A stretch of DNA of 25,518 nt from a virus (taxonomy: Duplodnaviria > Heunggongvirae > Uroviricota > Caudoviricetes), in IMG/VR virus record IMGVR_UViG_3300045988_091615, positions 1 through 25,518 of that record, one strand, 5' to 3'. This document shows positions 917-23,001 of the stretch, in pieces. The notes under the pieces are model-generated. The model had not been told where the DNA came from. It did not search any database and saw only the letters and a program-made list of their open reading frames with translations. Positions within the stretch are counted from its first letter, which is position 1. Every line of letters begins with the position of its first letter. The translations under genes were made by a program, and so were the position numbers.

Positions 917-3182
917 AGCCTCCGGGCGTTTTGTCCCTCCGTCAGCATTTGCCGCAGGCACCGGTAAGGCGTTTACCGGTGCTTATGCATGGAACGCGCC
1001 ACGCGAGGCTGTCGGGCGCGAAAGACCTCTTACACGTGACGAGATGCGTCAGGTGCAAGGTGTTTTATCCACGATTAACCGCCTGCCTTACTTTTTGCGC
1101 TCGCTGTTTACTTCACGCTATGACTACATCCGGCGCAATAAAAGCCCGGTGCACGGGTTTTATTTCCTCACATCCACTTTTCAGCGTCGTTTATGGCCGC
1201 GCATTGAGCGCGTGAATCAGCGCCATGAAATGAACACCGACGCGTCGTTACTGTTTCTGGCAGAGCGTGACCACTATGCGCGCCTGCCGGGAATGAATGA
1301 CAAGGAGCTGAAAAAATTTGCCGCCCGTATCTCATCGCAGCTTTTCATGATGTATGAGGAACTCTGCGATGCCTGGGTGGATGCCCATGGCGAAAAAGAA
1401 TCGCTGTTTACGGATGAGGCGCAGGCTCACCTGTATGGTCATGTTGCTGGCGCTGCACGTGCTTTCAATATTTCCCCGCTCTACTGGAAAAAATACCGTA
1501 AAGGACAGATGACCACGAGGCAGGCATATTCTGCCATTGCCCGCCTGTTTAACGATGAGTGGTGGACTCATCAGCTTAAAGGCCAGCGTATGCGCTGGCA
1601 TGAGGCGTTACTGATTGCTGTCGGGGAGGTCAATAAAGACCGTTCTCCTTATGCCAGTAAACATGCCATTCGTGATGTGCGTGCGCGCCGCCAGGCAAAT
1701 CTGGAATTTCTTAAATCGTGTGACCTTGAAAACAGGGAAACAGGCGAGCGCATCGACCTTATCAGTAAGGTGATGGGCAGTATTTCTAATCCTGAAATTC
1801 GCCGGATGGAGCTGATGAACACCATTGCCGGTATTGAGCGTTACGCCGCCGCAGAGGGTGATGTGGGGATGTTTATCACGCTTACCGCGCCGTCAAAGTA
1901 TCACCCGACACGTCAGGTCGGAAAAGGCGAAAGTAAAACCGTTCAGCTTAATCACGGCTGGAACGATGAGGCATTTAATCCAAAGGATGCGCAGCGTTAT
2001 CTCTGCCGTATCTGGAGCCTGATGCGCACGGCATTCAAGGATAATGATTTACAGGTCTACGGTTTGCGTGTCGTCGAGCCACACCACGACGGAACGCCGC
2101 ACTGGCATATGATGCTTTTTTGTAATCCGCGCCAGCGTAACCAGATTATCGAAATCATGCGTCGCTATGCGCTCAAAGAGGATGGCGACGAAAGAGGAGC
2201 CGCGCGAAACCGTTTTCAGGCAAAACACCTTAACCGGGGCGGTGCTGCGGGGTATATCGCGAAATACATCTCAAAAAACATCGACGGCTATGCACTGGAT
2301 GGTCAGTTCGATAACGATACCGGCAGGCCGCTTAAAGATACTGCCGCGGCTGTTACCGCATGGGCGTCAACGTGGCGCATTCCGCAATTTAAAACGGTTG
2401 GCCTGCCGACAATGGGGGCTTACCGTGAACTACGCAAATTGCCTCGTGGCGTCAGCATTGCTGATGAGTTTGACGAACGCGTCGAGGCTGCACGCGCCGC
2501 CGCAGACAGTGGTGATTTTGCGTTGTATATCAGCGCGCAGGGTGGGGCAAATGTCCCGCGCGATTGTCAGACTGTCAGGGTCGCCCGTAGCCCGTCGGAT
2601 GACGTTAACGAGTACGAGGAAGAAGTCGAGAGAGTGGTCGGCATTTACGCGCCGCATCTCGGCGCGCGTCATATTCATATCACCAGAACGACGGACTGGC
2701 GCATTGTGCCGAAAGTTCCGGTCGTTGAGCCTTTGACTTTAAAAAGCGGCATCGCCGCGCCTCGGAGTCCTGTCAATAACTGTGGAAAGCTCACCGGTGG
2801 TGATACTTCGTTACCGGCTCCCACGCCTTCTGAGCACGCCGCAGCAGTGCTTAATCTGGTTGATGACGGTGTTATCGAATGGTATGACCCGGAGGTCGTG
2901 AGGGCGCTCAGGGGCGCATTAAAACACGGCCTGAGAAGACCAAACCGTCAGCAAAGAAACGGAAGCCCGTTAAAACCGCATGAAATAGCGCCATCGGCCA
3001 GACTGACCCGGTCGGAAAGAATGCAAATTACCCGTATCCGCGTTGACCTTGCTCAGAACGGTATCAGGCCTCAGAGATGGGAGCTTGAGGCGCTGGCGCG
3101 TGGCGCGACTGTAAATTACGACGGTAAAAAATTCACGTATCCGGTCGCTGATGAGTGGCCGGGATTCACAATGGACCATTGA
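906..3182 (+). CDS. A: Rolling-circle replication initiation endonuclease, P2 gpA family
   Basis: Long ORF with the characteristic GpA motifs (HWHMMLF; AGYIAKYISKNIDGY with catalytic tyrosines). First ATG is at 906 with GAGG upstream; the ORF-track start at 864 is a TTG. From 906 the product is 758 aa, close to the ~761 aa I recall for P2 A. Confidence 0.9.
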   Translation: MAVKASGRFVPPSAFAAGTGKAFTGAYAWNAPREAVGRERPLTRDEMRQVQGVLSTINRLPYFLRSLFTSRYDYIRRNKSPVHGFYFLTSTFQRRLWPRIERVNQRHEMNTDASLLFLAERDHYARLPGMNDKELKKFAARISSQLFMMYEELCDAWVDAHGEKESLFTDEAQAHLYGHVAGAARAFNISPLYWKKYRKGQMTTRQAYSAIARLFNDEWWTHQLKGQRMRWHEALLIAVGEVNKDRSPYASKHAIRDVRARRQANLEFLKSCDLENRETGERIDLISKVMGSISNPEIRRMELMNTIAGIERYAAAEGDVGMFITLTAPSKYHPTRQVGKGESKTVQLNHGWNDEAFNPKDAQRYLCRIWSLMRTAFKDNDLQVYGLRVVEPHHDGTPHWHMMLFCNPRQRNQIIEIMRRYALKEDGDERGAARNRFQAKHLNRGGAAGYIAKYISKNIDGYALDGQFDNDTGRPLKDTAAAVTAWASTWRIPQFKTVGLPTMGAYRELRKLPRGVSIADEFDERVEAARAAADSGDFALYISAQGGANVPRDCQTVRVARSPSDDVNEYEEEVERVVGIYAPHLGARHIHITRTTDWRIVPKVPVVEPLTLKSGIAAPRSPVNNCGKLTGGDTSLPAPTPSEHAAAVLNLVDDGVIEWYDPEVVRALRGALKHGLRRPNRQQRNGSPLKPHEIAPSARLTRSERMQITRIRVDLAQNGIRPQRWELEALARGATVNYDGKKFTYPVADEWPGFTMDH

Positions 3183-3291: not shown

Positions 3292-4623
3292 ATGAACAAT
3301 AACAGTAAGAAAACTTTGAGTAAGAAAAGAACCAAGAAAGCCAAAAAGAAGTCGCTTACCCCTGAACAAAAAGCATTGCAAGCAGAACAAGCAGCAAAAA
3401 AAGCGCAAATTATAGAGAATAGGCGCTCTATTACAGCTCATGCTATTAATCTTTTTCAGCAATATACAGCACTCCGTAAAAAAGGATTAGATAGTTCCAC
3501 TGCTACTTTGCAAGCTTATGCTGATTATGAAAAAGTACATGGACATAAATTCCTTAGTTCTGTCTCTATGTGGACAAAAATCAAAACTGAAGCAGGGATT
3601 CGGATCTATGATCTTGAGAGACAAGATAGCCGTAAATCGCTTAATCTTGCTAAGATTCCGACCCGTTTAGAGGCTAAGCGTAGTGTACTGACACAGAACC
3701 AAAAGAAAGTACATAACCAGAATGCAAATACATTACGCTTAATCGGTGGCAAAAAGCTACCTGTAACATCTATGGGGCTTATTGTATGCCCTGTCTGCGA
3801 GATACATATAAAAGATAGTGCTATAGAGTGGCATTTACGACACAACCACGTAGATCATGTAGATAACCCGTTTACTAACCCTATAGTAGCTCCTATTGAT
3901 ACCTTAGAAGAGACTGTAGAAATACGTGATCTACTAATTGGTGATAAAACACTTCCGATTAAATCTAGTACTATTAATATGGGGAGTTACAAGAAAGATA
4001 AACGTTATTTTAATAAGCAAGTTTATCAAACGGCATTGCTAACAATGACACAATCAGAAGCGTGGAAACTCGCGACTGATGAAGAATCTAGTATGACTTT
4101 TTTAAGCAATCAGTACATAAGTCCATTAACATCACCCGAACCCAATAATGAAATATCTCTTATCATGGATGGAACGGATATAGCCATTAATGAAAGTCTA
4201 ACTAATCCTTTCAAGGCCGCAAACGATACCTGTGCTACAGGACGAACAGTCGAGGTTACTCACAAAGTCCGTCATGCTGGAGATCAAGCTGATTTCAAAC
4301 GCCGTGTTTGGGATAACTTCAATGGCAGATGTGCTATTACTGGCTATCCATTGCCAGAGGGGATATTGGAAGCCGCACATATTGAAGCAATAACAGAATC
4401 AGCAAATAATAACACATCTAATGGCCTGTTACTTGAAGTAAGTTTACACCGAATGTTTGATAAAGGATTAATGGGGATTAATCCAGAGGACTTAACGGTT
4501 CATTTCTCTATTAATTGTATCCACAAAACTATGTTTGAGGGTAAAACTCTACAACCGCATCATGTAGAACTTGATGCTGGGAAGTTGATGACAAAATGGA
4601 AAAAGTTCCATGATAAGCGTTAA
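3292..4623 (+). CDS. Cargo protein with C-terminal HNH_2-type nuclease domain, internal C2H2-like zinc-finger motif and Lys-rich N-terminus (candidate defence effector)
   Basis: 443-aa ORF, ATG 3292 with AAGG 8 nt upstream, markedly AT-rich. C-terminus carries the HNH_2 signature GRCAITG...EAAHIEA...SNGLLLEVSLHRMFDKG. Mid-protein CPVCEIHIKDSAIEWHLRHNH resembles a C2H2 finger. N-terminal ~45 aa are highly basic (KKTLSKKRTKKAKKK...). Confidence 0.8.
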   Translation: MNNNSKKTLSKKRTKKAKKKSLTPEQKALQAEQAAKKAQIIENRRSITAHAINLFQQYTALRKKGLDSSTATLQAYADYEKVHGHKFLSSVSMWTKIKTEAGIRIYDLERQDSRKSLNLAKIPTRLEAKRSVLTQNQKKVHNQNANTLRLIGGKKLPVTSMGLIVCPVCEIHIKDSAIEWHLRHNHVDHVDNPFTNPIVAPIDTLEETVEIRDLLIGDKTLPIKSSTINMGSYKKDKRYFNKQVYQTALLTMTQSEAWKLATDEESSMTFLSNQYISPLTSPEPNNEISLIMDGTDIAINESLTNPFKAANDTCATGRTVEVTHKVRHAGDQADFKRRVWDNFNGRCAITGYPLPEGILEAAHIEAITESANNNTSNGLLLEVSLHRMFDKGLMGINPEDLTVHFSINCIHKTMFEGKTLQPHHVELDAGKLMTKWKKFHDKR

Positions 4624-13603: not shown

Positions 13604-13748
13604 CCCGGAGACGAACGGCGATTTAAGTGCCGATATCCGGCAGCTTGAGAACGCGCTGGCACGCTGTGCCAGCCAGGTAAAAATGATTAAACACTGTCAG
13701 GACGAAAACGATGCTCAAACCCGACAGCCTGCGCAGGGCGTTGACTGA
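13458..13748 (+). CDS. lysC: LysC, Rz1-like outer-membrane lipoprotein spanin, embedded in the +1 frame of lysB
   Basis: ATG 13458 gives 96 aa beginning MKTKIFAAGMVLTCLMLCAGC (signal peptide with lipobox LCAGC). The track ORF from 13341 is an upstream extension of the same frame. Confidence 0.75.
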   Translation: MKTKIFAAGMVLTCLMLCAGCTSVRPALTPVIVHNACPKVSLCPMPGSDPETNGDLSADIRQLENALARCASQVKMIKHCQDENDAQTRQPAQGVD

Positions 13749-15563: not shown

Positions 15564-16199
15564 ATGAACACTCTCGCAAATATTCAGGAACTCGCGCGCG
15601 CACTGCGCAACATGATTCGCACCGGCATTATCGTCGAAACCGACCTTAACGCCGGTCGCTGCCGTGTGCAGACCGGCGGCATGTGCACTGACTGGCTTCA
15701 GTGGCTGACCCATCGTGCCGGTCGTTCGCGCACATGGTGGGCACCTTCCGTGGGGGAGCAGGTGCTGATTCTGGCCGTGGGCGGTGAACTCGACACGGCG
15801 TTCGTTCTGCCGGGGATTTATTCCGGCGATAACCCCTCGCCGTCTGTGTCGGCGGATGCCCTGCATATCCGTTTCCCTGACGGGGCGGTGATTGAATATG
15901 AACCCGAAACCAGTGCACTCACGGTAAGCGGAATTAAAACGGCCAGCGTGACGGCTTCTGATTCTGTTACTGCCACGGTGCCGGTGGTCATGGTGAAAGC
16001 ATCAACCCGCGTCACCCTGGACACCCCGGAGGTGGTCTGCACCAACAGGCTGATTACCGGCACGCTGGAAGTGCAGAAGGGCGGGACGATGCGCGGCAAC
16101 ATTGAACACACCGGCGGTGAACTCTCATCAAACGGTAAGGTACTGCATACCCATAAACACCCCGGCGACAGCGGCGGCACAACCGGGAGTCCTTTATGA
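15564..16199 (+). CDS. V: Baseplate assembly/spike protein, P2 gpV family
   Basis: ATG 15564 gives 211 aa (MNTLANIQELARALRNMIRTG...); the track start at 15546 is a TTG. Stop overlaps the W start (ATGA). Confidence 0.88.
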   Translation: MNTLANIQELARALRNMIRTGIIVETDLNAGRCRVQTGGMCTDWLQWLTHRAGRSRTWWAPSVGEQVLILAVGGELDTAFVLPGIYSGDNPSPSVSADALHIRFPDGAVIEYEPETSALTVSGIKTASVTASDSVTATVPVVMVKASTRVTLDTPEVVCTNRLITGTLEVQKGGTMRGNIEHTGGELSSNGKVLHTHKHPGDSGGTTGSPL

Positions 16200-17456: not shown

Positions 17457-17976
17457 GCGCCTGCTGCCGACCGGCTCATCACCGCTTGAAGTCGCCGCCG
17501 CAAAAGCCTGTGCGGAAATTGAAAAAACGCCGGTCAGTATTCGTGAACTGTGGAACCCGGACACCTGCCCGGGAAATCTGCTGCCGTGGCTGGCGTGGGC
17601 GTTTTCGGTCGACAGGTGGGATGAAAAGTGGCCGGAAGCGACAAAACGCGCCGTTATCCGCGATGCCTATTTCATCCACTGTCATAAGGGCACGATAGGT
17701 GCAATCCGGCGTGTGGTGGAGCCGCTCGGCTATCTCATCAACGTGACGGAGTGGTGGGAAAACAGTGACCCGCCAGGCACCTTCCGGCTTGATATTGGTG
17801 TACTGGAAAGCGGCATCACGGAGGCAATGTATCAGGAAATGGAACGGCTGATTGCCGATGCCAAACCTGCAAGCCGCCACCTTATTGGCCTGAACATTAC
17901 CCGGGACATTCCCGGCTATCTGTTCGCCGGTGGTGTGGCTTACGACGGCGATGTAATTACGGTTTACCCCGGATAA
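17449..17976 (+). CDS. I: Baseplate protein, P2 gpI family
   Basis: 175 aa; start overlaps the J stop; in the position of P2 I. Confidence 0.88.
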   Translation: MSERLLPTGSSPLEVAAAKACAEIEKTPVSIRELWNPDTCPGNLLPWLAWAFSVDRWDEKWPEATKRAVIRDAYFIHCHKGTIGAIRRVVEPLGYLINVTEWWENSDPPGTFRLDIGVLESGITEAMYQEMERLIADAKPASRHLIGLNITRDIPGYLFAGGVAYDGDVITVYPG

Positions 17977-17986
17977 GTGAGGAATA

Positions 17987-19996
17987 ATGAGCACGAAATT
18001 TAAAACCGTTATCACCACTGCCGGTGCAGCAAAGCTGGCAGCGGCAACCGCGCCGGGAGGGCGGAAGGTCAACATTACCACGATGGCCGTCGGGGATGGC
18101 GGTGGTAAATTGCCTGTCCCGGATGCCGGACAGACCGGGCTTATCCACGAAGTCTGGCGACATGCGCTGAACAAAATCAGCCAGGACAAACGAAACAGTA
18201 ATTATATTATCGCAGAGCTGGTTATTCCGCCGGAGGTGGGCGGTTTCTGGATGCGTGAGCTTGGCCTGTACGATGATGCTGGAACGTTAATTGCCGTGGC
18301 GAACATGGCCGAAAGTTATAAGCCAGCTCTTGCCGAAGGCTCAGGGCGTTCGCAGACCTGTCGCATGGTCATCATCGTCAGCAGTGTGGCCTCAGTGGAG
18401 CTGACCATTGACACCACAACGGTGATGGCGACGCAGGATTACGTTGATGACAAAATTGCAGAACATGAACAGTCACGACGTCACCCGGACGCCTCGCTGA
18501 CCGCAAAAGGTTTTACTCAGTTAAGCAGTGCGACCAACAGCACGTCTGAAACACTGGCCGCAACGCCGAAAGCGGTAAAGGCCGCGTATGACCTGGCTAA
18601 CGGGAAATATACCGCACAGGACGCCACCACAGCGCGAAAAGGCCTTGTCCAGCTCAGTAGTGCCACCAACAGCACGTCTGAAACGCTCGCCGCAACACCA
18701 AAAGCCGTTAAGACGGTAATGGATGAAACGAACAAAAAAGCGCCATTAAACAGCCCTGCACTGACCGGAACGCCAACGACGCCAACTGCGCGACAGGGAA
18801 CGAATAATACTCAGATCGCAAACACGGCTTTCGTTATGGCCGCGATTGCCGCCCTTGTAGACTCGTCGCCTGACGCACTGAATACGCTGAACGAGCTGGC
18901 GGCGGCGCTGGGCAATGACCCGAATTTTGCTACCACCATGACTAATGCGCTTGCGGGTAAGCAACCGAAAGATGCCACTTTGACGGCGCTGGCGGGGCTT
19001 GCTACTGCGGCAGACAGGTTTCCGTATTTTACGGGGAATGATGTTGCCAGCCTGGCGACCCTGACAAAAGTCGGGCGGGATATTCTGGCTAAATCGACCG
19101 TTGCCGCCGTTATCGAATATCTCGGTTTACAGGAAACGGTAAACCGAGCCGGGAACGCCGTGCAAAAAAATGGCGATACCTTGTCCGGTGGACTTACTTT
19201 TGAAAACGACTCAATCCTTGCCTGGATTCGAAATACTGACTGGGCGAAGATTGGATTTAAAAATGATGCCGATGGTGACACTGATTCATACATGTGGTTT
19301 GAAACGGGGGATAACGGCAATGAATATTTCAAATGGAGAAGCCGCCAGAGTACCACAACAAAAGACCTGATGACGTTGAAATGGGATGCACTAAATATTC
19401 TTGTTAATGCCGTCATTAATGGCTGTTTTGGAGTTGGTACGACGAATGCACTAGGTGGTAGCTCAATTGTTCTTGGTGATAATGATACCGGATTTAAACA
19501 GAATGGAGACGGTATTCTTGATGTTTATGCTAACAGTCAGCGAGTATTCCGTTTTCAGAATGGAGTGGCTATTGCTTTTAAAAATATTCAGGCAGGGGAT
19601 AGTAAAAAGTTCTCGCTATCCAGCTCTAACACATCCACGAAGAATATTACCTTTAATTTATGGGGTGCTTCCACCCGTCCAGTGGTTGCAGAGTTAGGCG
19701 ATGAGGCCGGATGGCATTTCTATAGCCAGCGAAATACAGATAACTCGGTAATATTTGCTGTTAACGGTCAGATGCAACCCAGCAACTGGGGGAATTTTGA
19801 TTCCCGCTATGTGAAAGATGTTCGCCTGGGTACGCGAGTTGTTCAATTGATGGCGCGAGGTGGTCGTTATGAAAAAGCCGGACACACGATTACCGGATTA
19901 AGAATCATTGGTGAAGTGGATGGCGATGATGAAGCCATCTTCAGGCCGATACAAAAATACATCAATGGCACATGGTATAACGTTGCGCAGGTGTAA
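17987..19996 (+). CDS. H: Tail fibre protein, P2 gpH family, with AT-rich C-terminal receptor-binding region
   Basis: 669 aa. N-terminal part is GC-rich P2-like; it contains tandem phage-tail-fibre repeats (QLSSATNSTSETLAATPKAVK twice). From about 19150 onward the composition drops to ~40% G+C, suggesting an exchanged distal module. Confidence 0.9.
   Translation: MSTKFKTVITTAGAAKLAAATAPGGRKVNITTMAVGDGGGKLPVPDAGQTGLIHEVWRHALNKISQDKRNSNYIIAELVIPPEVGGFWMRELGLYDDAGTLIAVANMAESYKPALAEGSGRSQTCRMVIIVSSVASVELTIDTTTVMATQDYVDDKIAEHEQSRRHPDASLTAKGFTQLSSATNSTSETLAATPKAVKAAYDLANGKYTAQDATTARKGLVQLSSATNSTSETLAATPKAVKTVMDETNKKAPLNSPALTGTPTTPTARQGTNNTQIANTAFVMAAIAALVDSSPDALNTLNELAAALGNDPNFATTMTNALAGKQPKDATLTALAGLATAADRFPYFTGNDVASLATLTKVGRDILAKSTVAAVIEYLGLQETVNRAGNAVQKNGDTLSGGLTFENDSILAWIRNTDWAKIGFKNDADGDTDSYMWFETGDNGNEYFKWRSRQSTTTKDLMTLKWDALNILVNAVINGCFGVGTTNALGGSSIVLGDNDTGFKQNGDGILDVYANSQRVFRFQNGVAIAFKNIQAGDSKKFSLSSSNTSTKNITFNLWGASTRPVVAELGDEAGWHFYSQRNTDNSVIFAVNGQMQPSNWGNFDSRYVKDVRLGTRVVQLMARGGRYEKAGHTITGLRIIGEVDGDDEAIFRPIQKYINGTWYNVAQV
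18518..18712 (+). repeat. Tandem in-frame 63-nt tail-fibre repeat units (period 132 nt) inside H
   Basis: Unit 18518-18580 and unit 18650-18712 are ~80% identical at nucleotide level and encode the same 21-aa motif. Consistent with the phage tail-fibre repeat family (Pfam Phage_fiber_2, as I recall). Confidence 0.8.
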
Positions 19997-19999
19997 GTT

Positions 20000-20527
20000 A
20001 TGCAGCATTTAAAGAACATTAAGTCAGGTAATCCAAAAACAAAAGAGCAATATCAGCTAACAAAGAATTTTGATGTTATCTGGTTATGGTCCGAAGACGG
20101 AAAAAACTGGTATGAGGAAGTGAAGAACTTTCAGCCAGACACAATAAAGATTGTTTACGATGAAAATAATATTATTGTCGCTATCACCAGAGATGCTTCA
20201 ACGCTTAATCCTGAAGGTTTTAGCGTTGTTGAGGTTCCTGATATTACCTCCAACCGACGTGCTGACGACTCAGGTAAATGGATGTTTAAGGATGGTGCTG
20301 TGGTTAAACGGATTTATACGGCAGATGAACAGCAACAACAGGCGGAATTACAGAAGGCAGCTTTGCTTTCCGAAGCTGAATCCGTAATTTTGCCGCTGGA
20401 GCGCGCTGTCAGGCTGAATATGGCAACAGATGAGGAACGCAGCCGACTGGAAGCATGGGAACGCTACAGCGTTCTGGTCAGTCGTGTGGATCCTGCAAAT
20501 CCTGAATGGCCGGAAATGCCACAATAA
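20000..20527 (+). CDS. G: Tail fibre assembly chaperone, P2 gpG / Tfa family
   Basis: 175 aa, ATG 4 nt after the H stop, AT-rich like the H C-terminus. Typical Tfa position and size. Confidence 0.85.
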
Positions 20528-20588
20528 GCTGTATAAACTCTGGTGTGAGCTCACATATCTATAACACAGAGTAACCCCTAATCTGACA

Positions 20589-20612
20589 GTCCGCTCTGTG
20601 CCAAGAGCGGAC
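20589..20612. other. Stable hairpin downstream of G (9-bp stem, 6-nt loop); not a canonical intrinsic terminator
   Basis: GTCCGCTCT (20589-20597) / AGAGCGGAC (20604-20612). No U-tract follows on either strand. Confidence 0.4.
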
Positions 20613-20717
20613 ATTGATAACATCAAGGCTCTCTGGTCAGAGGGGCTCAGGTCATTTACAGCATACAAAGAAAAAATTGAAATATTTTTCAAATAAACAC
20701 ATTGCAGGGCTTAGGCC

Positions 20718-21488
20718 TTACTCTTTAGCTCGTTTGGTCATCTCATTTGCTAACTGTGTAGACCAATAATGTTGACTCTTTGCTTCTAATATGAAAAGTA
20801 GCGCTCTCACACATTGTAGCTGAGCATGCACATAAGCATGAATATTACCAACTGAAGTAGGAACTAAGTGGGTTTCAGGTGTGTAGTAGTGGTAGATGCT
20901 CGTTTGTGAAGGATGAACATATTCGCTAAGTATGTCATAAGTCAGTTCAAAATCACTTTCCATCTGATTAGTCTGCTTCATCTCATCTTTATAGAGTTCG
21001 CGTAAAGCAGTCATCACATGCATACTGACAGCAAGTAGGTTTTCAAAACGATATTTAGCCTCCTCAGTAAACATGTAGTCGTTCGGGTCAAATACTCCTT
21101 TCTGAATCTTTTCTTGCTCTGACTTTTTAAATCGAGAACTATTCGTAAAGTTCAATATAACTTCGATAGCGTTATCTACACTTGCGTGGCCATTTTGGGT
21201 AGTCAAAATTTTCTCTACTTTCTTGTTTAAGAGTCGTGAGAAGGCATGAGTTTCAATCATTCCTCGGCTAACAATACAAGCGCTTTGGTATCGTTCGTTT
21301 TCGAGGAGGAGAAGCGCATCATCGAAGATGTCTATCTGCCTGTTCATAAGTAAATTGGCATAATTAACGAGATACAGTCCGCGGTCAGGGTTATGTGTTT
21401 TTTCGACAATTACACCATTAGTCTTGCTCAGCGCAGCTCTGGCGGCTTTTGCCTCATTCAGTCTCTGTTCTATAAGTTCTTTATACAT
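20718..21488 (-). CDS. Cargo: hypothetical soluble protein (256 aa), unknown function, at the P2 Z/fun position
   Basis: Minus-strand ORF, AAGGA upstream of the ATG ending at 21488, AT-rich, opposite orientation to the flanking G and FI. No domain recognised. Contains an Rx5H stretch (SRGMIETH), which is too loose to call HEPN. Confidence 0.8.
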   Translation of the reverse strand: MYKELIEQRLNEAKAARAALSKTNGVIVEKTHNPDRGLYLVNYANLLMNRQIDIFDDALLLLENERYQSACIVSRGMIETHAFSRLLNKKVEKILTTQNGHASVDNAIEVILNFTNSSRFKKSEQEKIQKGVFDPNDYMFTEEAKYRFENLLAVSMHVMTALRELYKDEMKQTNQMESDFELTYDILSEYVHPSQTSIYHYYTPETHLVPTSVGNIHAYVHAQLQCVRALLFILEAKSQHYWSTQLANEMTKRAKE

Positions 21489-21687
21489 GCTTTGTTTCCT
21501 TACAGGAGGATGTGTATCAACGAATAATCATTCCGCCTTTTGTCAGCTTGACTGTAAGGTATCATGCTGAAGTTAGCCATACAAAGCTCTGCCCATTATC
21601 AGTTTACCCAAAGCAGACTGTCAGATTTGATAGCGTTTGGGCTATGTAAATTGTCAGTCGGAAAATGAGTGAGTACAAATCAGGACA

Positions 21688-21716
21688 GGCGGGCGAATTG
21701 CCCGCCTTTTCTTTAT
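21688..21716 (+). terminator. Rho-independent terminator on the plus strand upstream of FI
   Basis: GGCGGGC (21688-21694) - GAATT - GCCCGCC (21700-21706) followed by TTTTCTTTAT. Canonical GC-rich stem plus U-tract on the plus strand only. Confidence 0.65.
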
Positions 21717-21810
21717 CTGTTGTTTCATCCACTGACCAGCCAGGTCAAATAGCGTCTCATGCACTGCCCAACAGAAAATAGTTGCACCCATTAACCACGG
21801 AGTTAAACGG

Positions 21811-23001
21811 ATGAGTGACTATCATCACGGCGTGCAGGTGCTGGAGATTAACGACGGCACCCGCGTCATTTCCACCGTATCCACTGCCGTTGTCGGCATG
21901 GTCTGTACGGCTAGCGATGCGGATGCGGAAACCTTCCCCCTCAATAAACCTGTGCTGATTACCAATGTGCAGAGCGCAATTGCAAAGGCCGGTAAAAAAG
22001 GCACGCTGGCGGCATCGTTGCAGGCCATCGCCGACCAGTCAAAACCGGTCACCGTTGTCGTGCGTGTGGAAGACGGCACCGGTGACGACGAGGAAACGAA
22101 ACTCGCGCAGACCGTTTCCAATATCATCGGCACCACCGACGAAAACGGTCAGTACACCGGACTGAAAGCCCTGCTGGCGGCAGAGTCGGTAACCGGTGTT
22201 AAACCGCGTATTCTCGGCGTGCCGGGACTGGACACCAAAGAGGTGGCTGTTGCACTGGCATCAGTCTGTCAGAAGCTGCGCGCTTTCGGGTATATCAGCG
22301 CATGGGGCTGTAAGACTATTTCCGAGGTGAAAGCCTACCGCCAGAATTTCAGCCAGCGTGAGCTGATGGTCATCTGGCCGGATTTCCTCGCATGGGATAC
22401 GGTCACCAGTACCACCGCCACCGCGTATGCCACCGCCCGTGCGCTGGGTCTGCGCGCTAAAATCGACCAGGAGCAGGGCTGGCATAAAACGCTGTCCAAT
22501 GTCGGGGTGAACGGTGTTACCGGCATCAGCGCATCCGTCTTCTGGGATTTGCAGGAGTCCGGCACCGATGCTGACCTGCTTAACGAGTCAGGCGTCACTA
22601 CGCTGATTCGCCGCGACGGTTTCCGCTTCTGGGGTAACCGTACCTGCTCCGATGACCCGCTGTTCCTCTTTGAAAACTACACCCGCACCGCGCAGGTGCT
22701 GGCCGACACGATGGCTGAGGCGCACATGTGGGCGGTGGACAAGCCCATCACTGCAACGCTGATTCGCGACATCGTTGACGGCATCAATGCCAAATTCCGT
22801 GAGCTGAAAACAAACGGCTATATCGTGGATGCGACCTGCTGGTTCAGCGAAGAATCCAACGATGCGGAAACCCTCAAGGCCGGAAAACTGTATATCGACT
22901 ATGACTATACCCCGGTGCCTCCTCTCGAAAACCTGACCCTGCGCCAGCGTATTACTGATAAATATCTGGCAAATCTGGTCACCTCGGTTAACAGCAATTA
23001 A
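21811..23001 (+). CDS. FI: Contractile tail sheath protein, P2 gpFI family
   Basis: 396 aa, matching P2 FI length; followed by the tail tube gene. Confidence 0.92.
   Translation: MSDYHHGVQVLEINDGTRVISTVSTAVVGMVCTASDADAETFPLNKPVLITNVQSAIAKAGKKGTLAASLQAIADQSKPVTVVVRVEDGTGDDEETKLAQTVSNIIGTTDENGQYTGLKALLAAESVTGVKPRILGVPGLDTKEVAVALASVCQKLRAFGYISAWGCKTISEVKAYRQNFSQRELMVIWPDFLAWDTVTSTTATAYATARALGLRAKIDQEQGWHKTLSNVGVNGVTGISASVFWDLQESGTDADLLNESGVTTLIRRDGFRFWGNRTCSDDPLFLFENYTRTAQVLADTMAEAHMWAVDKPITATLIRDIVDGINAKFRELKTNGYIVDATCWFSEESNDAETLKAGKLYIDYDYTPVPPLENLTLRQRITDKYLANLVTSVNSN

Follow-up and report, generated by a model that had tools for sequence, protein, structure and literature searches.

The region at 21489–21716 of the window, the whole stretch of 25,518 nt analysed here, marks the right edge of the Z/fun (TO) cargo hotspot in a P2-like (Peduovirus) prophage. 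Its hairpin at 21687–21716 is very probably the terminator of the V–G late operon, displaced from gene G and now lying beside a cargo gene, with three TGTCAG copies and a 34-aa open reading frame (ORF) as by-products of this arrangement; we hold this explanation as a whole with high confidence. The architecture, its conservation, the empty sites of relatives and a recombination breakpoint were read directly by sequence analysis. The P2 gene order H, G, FI, FII is kept, as judged from the ORFs and from the RefSeq annotation of a near-identical prophage, in which gene G is labelled "tail fiber assembly protein" (Table 1). The segment 21609–21810 is 95–99% identical to Wphi, P2-type and other Peduovirus genomes, regardless of the cargo that they carry; the right junction of Wphi (E. 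coli W) matches at 99%.

Table 1. Features at the G–FI junction of the window, with strand and the basis of each assignment.
Feature	Position	Strand	Basis or remark
Gene G, tail-fibre assembly, last gene of the late V-W-J-I-H-G operon	20000–20527	+	ORF; Pfam Caudo_TAP, E = 1.5e-36
Left inverted repeat of the Z/fun (TO) hotspot	20528–20612	+	Annotated "left inverted repeat" in AJ512683 and AJ512676
Cargo gene, 256-aa DUF5677 protein	20718–21488	−	ORF; Pfam PF18928, E = 1.1e-9; RefSeq "DUF5677 domain-containing protein"
Cargo-specific leader/promoter region of the DUF5677 gene	21489–21608	−	Homology to other P2-like phages begins only at 21609
34-aa ORF, non-genic frame formed by chance across cargo leader and repeat	21564–21668	+	Start in cargo-specific DNA
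Candidate sigma-70 promoter of the cargo gene	21595–21624	−	Prediction only; 10/12 match
Right inverted repeat of the Z/fun hotspot, minus its inner 14 nt	21609–21686	+	Annotated in AJ512683, AJ512677, AJ512685 and AJ512682
Intrinsic terminator of the V–G late operon	Stem 21687–21695 / 21699–21707; U tract 21707–21716	+	Backbone, not cargo
Ogr/delta activator binding site of pF	21717–21746	+	Aligned to NC_001895 "activator binding site; activation of pF promoter", 17555–17583
Putative pF −10 (GAAAAT) and start (~21785–21787) of the FI-FII-E-T-U-D operon	21774–21787	+	Aligned to NC_001895
FI, tail sheath protein	21811–23001	+	ORF; RefSeq "phage tail sheath protein"

The canonical plus-strand intrinsic terminator recorded in the preliminary description stands clearly above chance. 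Its core, GGCGGGC-GAATT-GCCCGCC at 21688–21706, can be extended to 21687–21707, giving a stem of nine pairs, seven of them G-C, with a loop of 3–5 nt, and it is followed by the T tail TTTTCTTTAT (21707–21716), that is, a G+C-rich stem-loop and then a U-rich tract. The RNA fold reaches −20.1 kcal/mol compared with −9.5 ± 2.5 kcal/mol for shuffled sequences (z = −4.3), and none of 200 shuffles equalled it. Under lenient criteria, the hairpin is the only strong plus-strand terminator-like site from the G stop (20527) to FI (21811). No plus-strand gene ends just upstream of it, as had been remarked before; the nearest is G, ending at 20527, and with G as the last upstream plus-strand gene and no strong terminator between, the hairpin lies at the end of a same-strand transcription unit. 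Judging from its sequence and conservation, termination in vivo would be expected at 21710–21716.

Relatives bear out the earlier suggestion that this is the ancestral V–G operon terminator, separated from G by the cargo. At about 40 cargo-free loci, 34 of them from other Enterobacterales genera, the G stop lies 0–6 nt before the hairpin, the upstream plus-strand ORF ending 122–132 nt before the FI ATG, which is the hairpin's 5′ edge. In the E. coli-type empty sites (L011, L042, L044, L047, L072 and L075), G ends in ...CAATAA, followed by A(T/C) and then by ACAGGCGGGC...GCCCGCCTTTTCTTT, which places its stop (CAATAA-AT-ACAGGCGGGC...) beside the same hairpin that the window has. Precise deletion is, in principle, an alternative origin for these E. 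coli sites, and the argument for ancestry rests on the more distant genera. In more distant P2-like prophages the position is likewise taken by a terminator, but the stems differ. Of 154 distinct upstream regions, 103 contain a terminator-like hairpin ending at −115 to −93, whereas shuffling produced one in 34 of 3080 sequences (1.1%), and at least 10 unrelated stems occupy the position (e.g., CGGGC/GCCCG, CCTCC/GGAGG, GATCG/CGATC, GCCCC/GGGGC and CCACG/TGTGG), so that across the 154 distinct relatives the structure is kept despite sequence change.

A terminator at this position is not obligatory, because the hairpin was undetected there in about one third of the 154 distinct relatives, many of which have a DNA invertase gene that ends right at pF. 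It is also dispensable in some arrangements, since the reference P2 (NC_001895) has a degenerate, unannotated equivalent (−10.8 kcal/mol) and its annotated terminator, the "putative rho-independent terminator for V operon" (15639–15666), lies inside the fun(Z) insert, P2's own cargo. The annotated P2 element is built alike, as a G+C-rich stem with a short loop and then a U tract on the same strand after G, and both would act as any intrinsic terminator does, but it is a different hairpin; the hairpin of the window is displaced by 1.16 kb from G.

We propose that in the backbone state the G stop is followed within 0–6 nt by a G+C-rich hairpin and U tract that would end V-operon transcripts. A block of 1,158 bp (20528–21685) would have been inserted between the G stop and this terminator, made up of the left inverted repeat, the leftward DUF5677 gene together with the leader that belongs to it, and the right inverted repeat in truncated form. 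Because the block would have entered after the G stop, the hairpin is now isolated, the nearest plus-strand gene being 1.16 kb away. V-operon read-through, which here would cross the cargo gene in antisense, presumably still stops at the hairpin, and in relatives with rightward cargo, such as Wphi (orf44), it may also keep cargo transcripts of the lysogen out of the tail genes.

The Ogr site of pF starts directly after the T tail of the terminator. This abutment would keep the two tail operons separate and shield pF from incoming transcription, the hairpin acting as a putative insulator of pF. The site aligns with that of P2 pF, a member of the TGT-N12-ACA class, and keeps TGT-N12-CCA (21721–21738), the same half-sites as P2 pF; the predicted transcription start was transferred from the NC_001895 feature "transcription start site for F operon" (17626–17628). 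The window nevertheless has the Wphi-type allele, which differs substantially from the P2 type between the T tail and the transcription start, whereas the three other DUF5677 prophages carry the P2-type pF allele. From the cargo to the end of the T tail, the four prophages differ at one base only, in the hairpin loop; from the next base after the tail they split into these two alleles. The conserved repeat and terminator may therefore offer a stretch of homology for swapping cargo modules between phages.

The Z/fun repeats that bound the inserted block are already known and annotated in GenBank (AJ512676–AJ512685, "proviral Z-region"; Nilsson et al. 2004), where they lie at the same G–FI locus with cargo between them. 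The stretch 20528–20612 corresponds to the left repeat of these records, and 21609–21686 is 95–97% identical to the annotated right repeat (96.5% to AJ512683, with the match overlapping its "right inverted repeat" at 1743–1833). The window's right repeat is a truncated member of this family: unlike the annotated copies, it lacks the inner 14 nt, and its cargo, DUF5677, is rare. The right repeat is 95–99% identical across about 60 P2-like phages with unrelated cargo, and its alignment comprised 42 distinct copies. The inner 33-nt core of the left repeat, AATCTGACAGTCCGCTCTGTGCCAAGAGCGGAC (20580–20612), holds the hairpin GTCCGCTCT/AGAGCGGAC (20589–20612), which on the minus strand is the first strong hairpin after the cargo gene and is then followed by TGTCAGATT. 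In the consensus of 39 distinct sequences, left-core conservation falls just past ...GAGCGGAC; overall, conservation drops immediately after GGAC in the left core and immediately before GTCC in the right core. The two cores are inverted with respect to each other, matching at 28 of 33 nt in consensus, and 21609–21627 has its inverted partner just past the G stop (20580–20598, 89% complementary). The right repeat lacks the GTCCGCTTCTCGCT half of the core hairpin, in whose place cargo-specific sequence stands; the complete inner core hairpin GTCCGCTTCTCGCTCAAAGCAGAC is absent on the right side, and the right repeats of the window and of the three relatives with the same cargo start at CAAAGCAGAC.

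The right repeat also contains an imperfect 44-nt hairpin, GACTG...CAGTC, which is without covariation support, as one pair is compensated (ATAAC/GTTAT, in L021 and L054) and as many are broken. The left repeat contains GAGCTCACATATCTA, which we take to be close to the ERIC core. An ERIC/REP-type dispersed repeat was ruled out for the hotspot repeat, which occurs in 2,395 of 5,426 E. coli genomes at a median of one place per genome and a maximum of five; the number of genomes that carry it is close to the number that match the P2-like G–FI region (2,294).

The DUF5677 cargo occupies this locus in 4 of 5426 complete E. coli genomes. It had no PADLOC match to a known defence system, and in the literature DUF5677 was found only in a 2025 preprint that chose a DUF5677 ORF as a candidate. 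In the cargo leader, AAGGA precedes the ATG at 21488 as the ribosome-binding site, and about 70 nt before this ATG, including AAGCTGACAAAAG, are conserved with DUF5677 homologues outside P2 in Pseudescherichia, Pantoea and Providencia.

The hexamer TGTCAG does occur three times within 120 bp (21541, 21619 and 21652), as first described; the accompanying judgement that this is unlikely by chance is weak. TGTCAG is enriched across the whole window, with 27 copies found against 11 expected, and random placement of its 18 plus-strand copies puts three inside 117 nt at P = 0.046. Among 2000 shuffles of the 228-nt region, 102 contain some hexamer three times within 120 nt, and 38 different hexamers form such a cluster somewhere in the window. 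The copies at 21619 and 21652 lie inside the right inverted repeat, with a mirror copy on the minus strand of the left core at 20583–20588; the CTGTCAG of the right repeat is nearly palindromic and has its mirror image, CTGACAG, in the left repeat. The copy at 21541–21546 lies inside the DUF5677 leader, where it reads CTGACA on the coding strand and where conservation extends outside P2. The cluster would thus be a juxtaposition of two copies from the repeat and one from the 5′ leader of the cargo. With these two separate origins and a marginal clustering, the proposal of a regulator binding site is not supported, and an array of transcription-factor sites was rejected on P ~0.05, the two independent origins, the spacing of 78 and 33 nt and the variation of the motif in relatives.

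It is very unlikely that TGTCAG (CTGACA) serves as a protein-binding or promoter element of the leftward cargo gene, for example with 21619–21624 as a hybrid −35 element used with a cargo-borne −10. The candidate promoter has CTGACA as its −35 (21624–21619, in the conserved repeat), an 18-nt spacer and GATAAT as its −10 (21600–21595, cargo-specific). This 10/12 match is the only minus-strand promoter-like site in 19900–22000 and lies upstream of the cargo gene, its sequence is identical in all four DUF5677 prophages, and the copy at 21541 falls within the leader block conserved among DUF5677 homologues. The scan, however, yielded fewer promoter-like sites than shuffled sequences (2 compared with 4.5), so that a match alone is not evidence, and the usual untruncated repeat has no −10 after CTGACA, so that any promoter role would be specific to the junction of the window; the position given for the cargo promoter is a putative one. 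Moreover, the TGTCAG copies are independent in origin and irregularly spaced, and the hexamer within the repeat is conserved no better than its neighbours, with AGTCAG, CGTCAG, TGTCAT or TATCAG in several relatives. The leader copy reads CTGGCA in P. vulneris and CTAACA in Pantoea. A second possibility, that the ~80-nt repeat and the terminator form a small RNA or small-protein gene ending at the hairpin, is highly improbable. A conserved non-coding stretch with a strong terminator has the typical look of a small RNA, but no Rfam family was matched (best E = 3), the 191-nt stretch is not unusually structured (z = −1.4), and in the internal 44-nt hairpin broken pairs are as frequent among relatives as compensated ones. 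The conserved part contains no plus-strand promoter-like site; the sole plus-strand promoter match (9/12, 21499–21528) lies in cargo-specific DNA, in the ribosome-binding region of the cargo gene. A small regulatory RNA gene was rejected on these grounds. For a small protein, there is a possible AAGG four nucleotides before the ATG of the 34-aa ORF, and another ORF (21665–21781) is called "hypothetical protein" in several phage records. The 34-aa ORF translates exactly as first read and ends 19–20 nt before the hairpin, yet it is not kept in relatives: its start codon and first 15 codons lie in cargo-specific DNA, P2-like homology beginning at 21609, and its frame is interrupted by stops in 8 of 42 distinct relatives. 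Substitutions by codon position (43/31/54) show no third-position excess, and no Pfam match was found. The alternative first put forward, of a short plus-strand transcript carrying this ORF, is not supported in view of these findings and the lack of an Rfam match, and a protein-coding small ORF was likewise rejected on its frame, start and third-position substitutions. A 34-codon ORF is unremarkable here, where 36 ORFs of at least 20 aa overlap 19900–21900. The four prophages with the same cargo are identical throughout the region and are uninformative on conservation of the ORF. Empty-site relatives lack the whole stretch and still have the terminator.

The displaced terminator is compatible with a further reading, in which the inverted cores (AATCTGACAGTC-CGCTC...GAGCG-GAC and its mirror), including TGTCAG/CTGACA, are the sites of a site-specific or hairpin-directed recombination system that inserts or exchanges cassettes, the motif being a recombination signal rather than a transcription signal. 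We consider this unlikely, but several observations point towards it. At least 25 distinct cargo types share their boundaries to within a few nucleotides, and in 48 loci the cargo is bracketed by exactly two cores, one per side. Comparable cores stand on both sides of a DUF5677 homologue that lies in a Providencia chromosome and not in a P2 prophage (2121–2154, plus strand, and 3355–3428, minus strand, of L172; nhmmer E = 1.7e-4 and 3.7e-4), and in another P2-like prophage a different cargo island, at the junction of the S and V operons, has a full copy of the left repeat (E = 3.7e-13) as its boundary. Nilsson, Karlsson and Haggard-Ljungquist (Mol Biol Evol, 2004) reportedly proposed site-specific recombination at the Z/fun locus. 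Against this stand the uneven boundaries, with 14 nt missing from the right core of the window, the first TGTCAG lost in L068 and homology starting only at the terminator in L008. The cassettes have no recombinase linked to them, the E. coli copies of the repeat are not dispersed, and the switch of pF allele after the T tail shows that ordinary homologous exchange occurs in the flanks. No cargo-free "solo" core pair was found in IMG/VR, where the pattern AATCTGACAG-N36-66-CTGTCAGATT gave one match, a chance palindrome in an unrelated phage region; the core matches outside P2 have modest E-values obtained in a small search space. It is more speculative still, and decidedly unlikely, that the 33-nt cores with CTGWCAG could be the ends of a mobile cassette, such that an uncharacterised recombination process loads defence-type genes into chromosomal sites and, in P2-like phages, into the junctions of late operons (G/FI and S/V), with the cassette of the window "frozen" by the loss of half a core.

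Under the preferred explanation, a displaced V–G terminator beside the cargo, the architecture is ordinary and largely known already. A moron is an insertion between two late-operon genes that consists of one gene with a promoter and a terminator of its own. The hotspot shares with phage morons an autonomously expressed gene at an operon boundary, and it receives many cargoes at one site. Integron cassettes with attC hairpins likewise have imperfect hairpin-forming repeats at their ends; the hotspot differs in having no associated integrase or attI and in placing inverted copies on both sides of the cargo, whereas each integron cassette has a single attC. Arrays are uncommon at the hotspot (2 of 60 loci have a weak third core), and no sequence similarity was seen between attC and the hotspot cores.

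For annotation, the hairpin should be labelled as the V-operon terminator and insulator of pF, the 34-aa ORF and the 38-aa "hypothetical protein" of some records should not be called, and the TGTCAG copies should not be taken for an operator. Many unrelated genes occupy the space between the same two hairpin cores, and similar cores are also present at a second P2 hotspot and, outside P2, around a homologous gene. Cargo at the Z/fun defence hotspot can be delimited by the G stop, the left core, which ends ...GAGCGGAC, the right core, which starts GTCCGC..., the terminator and the Ogr site, and these landmarks are precise and portable, which makes them useful for mining defence genes.

The window has the gene order of a P2-like (Peduovirus) prophage, and its G–FI gap corresponds to the variable P2 locus called Z/fun or TO, a site known to be a hotspot for genes of lysogenic conversion and phage defence (PMC9519451; bioRxiv 10.1101/2024.10.15.618418). 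Relatives were gathered as 80 close loci from IMG/VR and 80 from Enterobacterales, with one genome per species. When 50,697 phage records were searched, 21609–21810 was recovered at 95–99% identity in ~60 P2-like phages with unrelated cargo (the variable insert between G and FI), including Wphi, several "Peduovirus P2" records, Yersinia phages HQ103 and L-413C, and P2-EC isolates, and 21489–21608 had no counterpart in these phages. The DUF5677 cargo is rare at the G–FI locus, being present in 4 of 5,426 complete E. coli genomes. P2-like FI genes 81–91% identical to that of E. coli also occurred in genome contigs (L090, L092, L095 and L164) from assemblies labelled Chryseobacterium sp., Vagococcus sp. 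and Sporobacter termitidis (MAG); these contigs are most likely contaminating or mis-binned enterobacterial DNA.

Features of the window and of comparison loci
Feature	Position	Remarks
Tail fibre H	17987-19996	
Tail-fibre assembly G	20000-20527	Caudo_TAP, E 1.5e-36
Annotated left inverted repeat	~20528-20612	AJ512676-AJ512685 mapped onto window
DUF5677 gene	20718-21488	256 aa, leftward
Annotated right inverted repeat	~21595-21685	AJ512676-AJ512685 mapped onto window
Terminator hairpin	21687-21707	
Ogr site half-sites TGT-N12-CCA	21721-21738	alignment with annotated P2
pF start	~21785-21787	alignment with annotated P2
Tail sheath FI	21811-23001	
Tail tube FII	after FI	
Providencia core-like hairpins	L172 2121-2154 (+), 3355-3428 (-)	resemble P2 hotspot repeats
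S/V cargo island	L179 7918-13797	reverse transcriptase, cold-shock domain, DUF5677, RES, YaaC

The preliminary description had suggested that a plus-strand hairpin upstream of FI could be the ancestral terminator of the V-G operon, now separated from G by the cargo. The hairpin, AGGCGGGCG-AAT-TGCCCGCCT followed by TTTTCTTTAT, folds at -20.1 kcal/mol, compared with -9.5 ± 2.5 in shuffles (z -4.3), and is the sole strong plus-strand terminator-like site from the G stop to FI, even with lenient criteria. In six cargo-free E. coli-type relatives (L011, L042, L044, L047, L072 and L075), G ends in ...CAATAA and, two bases later, the same hairpin follows (ACAGGCGGGC...GCCCGCCTTTTCTTT), which bears out the suggestion. 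Likewise, the upstream plus-strand ORF stops 122–132 nt ahead of the FI start, where the hairpin begins on its 5′ side, in ~40 loci, of which 34 belong to other genera (including Kosakonia, Enterobacter, Citrobacter, Scandinavium, Yersinia and Rouxiella). Of 154 distinct upstream regions, 103 have a hairpin and T tract ending at -115 to -93 from FI, whereas the rate in shuffled controls is 1.1%; at least 10 of the stem sequences are unrelated. Comparison of these regions indicates that the structure is kept at one position while its sequence turns over. This positional conservation, together with the adjacency of G and hairpin in relatives, shows that an inserted block of 1,158 bp (20528–21685) separates the G stop from its terminator. 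At this position, no hairpin is present in about one third of relatives, and in many of them an invertase gene ends right at pF, the late promoter of the FI operon. This DNA invertase gene (Hin/Gin-type C-terminus ...STLYKKFP...) fills the G–FI slot in many P2-like prophages (L006, L018, L024 and ~20 other IMG/VR loci, at -700 to -100 from FI); it ends directly at the activator site of pF, and no terminator hairpin separates the two.

After induction, V-operon transcripts running beyond the G stop would meet no other strong terminator, and would cross the cargo gene antisense before ending at 21710–21716. With rightward cargo, such as Wphi orf44 and P2-EC30 ORF1, the same hairpin would serve as terminator of the cargo transcript and would bar transcription of lysogen-expressed cargo from the tail genes. 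Reference P2 (L004, NC_001895) differs in carrying a weakened copy (3517–3552 of its locus; GGTGAGC in place of GCCCGCC; -10.8 versus -19.6 kcal/mol). This degenerate copy is unannotated in the P2 record, whose "putative V-operon terminator" is a separate hairpin inside the fun(Z) insert. The P2 cargo gene is leftward, which, together with the separate hairpin, fits a relaxed need for the ancestral one.

The inserted block is bounded by repeats already annotated in GenBank AJ512676–AJ512685 ("proviral Z-region"), where the "left inverted repeat" follows closely on G and the "right inverted repeat" closely precedes the hairpin. The cargo is flanked by a single 33-nt core on either side in 48 loci (left, AATCTGACAGTCCGCTCTGTGCCAGGAGCGGAC; right, GTCCGCTTCTCGCTCAAAGCAGACTGTCAGATT); the two match as an inverted pair at 28 of 33 positions, each can form a hairpin, and conservation drops off exactly at their inner ends. 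The window and three further E. coli genomes that carry this cargo have a right core from which the inner 14 nt are missing. A dispersed genomic repeat was ruled out: the sequence occurs in 2,395 of 5,426 genomes at a median of one copy per genome, a number close to that of genomes carrying a P2-like G–FI region. On the strand that reads out of the cargo, TGTCAGATT(T) comes after each core hairpin, a weak terminator-like arrangement, and the cores may therefore serve as cassette terminators that face outwards. Two loci with long cargo (3.5–3.9 kb; L012 2720–2743 and L073 1401–1427) gave a weak internal match to a third core, which may mark the junction of two cassettes.

The outer foot of each core holds TGTCAG/CTGACA (CTGTCAG is the reverse complement of CTGACAG, and CTGWCAG is a 7-bp palindrome). 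TGTCAG does occur at 21541, 21619 and 21652, as had been reported; the view that this is unlikely by chance proved weak. When the window's 18 plus-strand copies were placed at random, three fell within 117 nt with P = 0.046; 5% of shuffled versions of the region had some hexamer three times in 120 nt; and 38 different hexamers cluster likewise somewhere in the window. Over the whole window, TGTCAG is enriched (27 versus 11 ± 3.3 expected), a count reached by no shuffle. Comparison of cores and repeats assigns the copies at 21619 and 21652 to the right repeat, with a mirror copy at 20583–20588. The 21541 copy arrived with the cargo gene and has an origin separate from that of the repeat copies, because ~70 nt of 5′ leader, including AAGCTGACAAAAG, the complement of this TGTCAG, is common to the window and to non-P2 DUF5677 homologues. 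The cluster is a product of juxtaposition. Upstream of the cargo gene, the minus strand has a single sigma-70-like site (CTGACA-18-GATAAT, 21624–21595, 10/12), which predicts a hybrid promoter, with its -35 from the repeat and its -10 from the cargo; alternatively, the promoter could lie in a block around CATGAT (21566–21561) conserved with the non-P2 homologues.

The 34-aa ORF translates exactly as previously written but is a spurious chance frame: the ATG and the first 15 codons are in DNA specific to the cargo and the remainder in the repeat, the frame has a stop in 8 of 42 distinct repeat sequences, substitutions by codon position are 43/31/54, and it has no Pfam match. Its identity across the four same-cargo relatives carries no weight either way. 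A small RNA was likewise unsupported, with no Rfam match, no plus-strand promoter-like site in the conserved part of the stretch, unremarkable overall stability (z -1.4) and inconsistent covariation in an internal 44-nt hairpin.

Alignment with the annotated P2 genome indicated that the T tail of the terminator passes directly into the pF activator (Ogr) site. The four prophages that carry DUF5677 share one sequence from the cargo to the last T of this tail, bar one hairpin-loop base, and from the next base (21716/21717) two pF alleles appear, Wphi type in the window (ATCTGTTGTTTCATCC...) and P2 type in the other three (L003, L167 and L168; ACCGGTGGTTGTGCTGTCG...), both retaining TGT-N12-CCA. 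This switch maps a crossover to the end of the conserved repeat-plus-terminator stretch and provides direct evidence that cargo modules travel by homologous exchange in these flanks. Nearby, ATGAGTGAGTA (21665–21675), where the right repeat ends on its outer side, is similar to the start of FI, ATGAGTGACTA (21811–21821), and a 38-aa ORF from 21665 (MSEYKSGQ..., compared with MSDYHHGVQ... in FI) extends across the terminator and pF; the likeness may have arisen by chance or through a small duplication of the 5′ end of FI. Several phage records matching 21609–21810 annotate a "hypothetical protein" here, which may be this ORF.

A dedicated mechanism exchanging cassettes at the cores, an idea reportedly already proposed by Nilsson et al. 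in 2004, judging by the title, is kept alive by near-identical boundaries common to very many cargo types and by two occurrences elsewhere. On a Providencia chromosome, next to umuDC and outside a P2 prophage, core-like sequences flank a DUF5677 homologue (L172). In another P2-like prophage (L179), a second late-operon junction, S/V, holds a cargo island of five genes, and an inverted full copy of the "left" repeat (~13610–13690; E 3.7e-13) forms the island's right edge, just upstream of the V promoter. However, boundaries are ragged at several loci, including the window, no recombinase is linked to the cassettes, and homologous exchange is demonstrably at work in the four DUF5677 prophages. 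A weaker core copy was also seen at L175 2860–2893, with an SMC-like gene on one side and another DUF5677 gene on the other.

Outside P2 prophages, DUF5677 homologues of 80–83% identity were found in Pseudescherichia, Pantoea and Providencia. Neighbours of the cargo's homologues (L177 and L178) are PIN/PhdYeFM toxin-antitoxin genes, an N6 methyltransferase, a reverse transcriptase or an SMC-like ATPase, which suggests a defence role for the cargo, although it has no PADLOC model. Overall, the finding is real as sequence and ordinary in meaning, a displaced terminator of the P2-like backbone beside a known hotspot repeat. The architecture is essentially known, since public records already annotate pF and the repeats, and good descriptions of the hotspot exist; the sole lead with some potential is the hairpins at the cassette boundaries.
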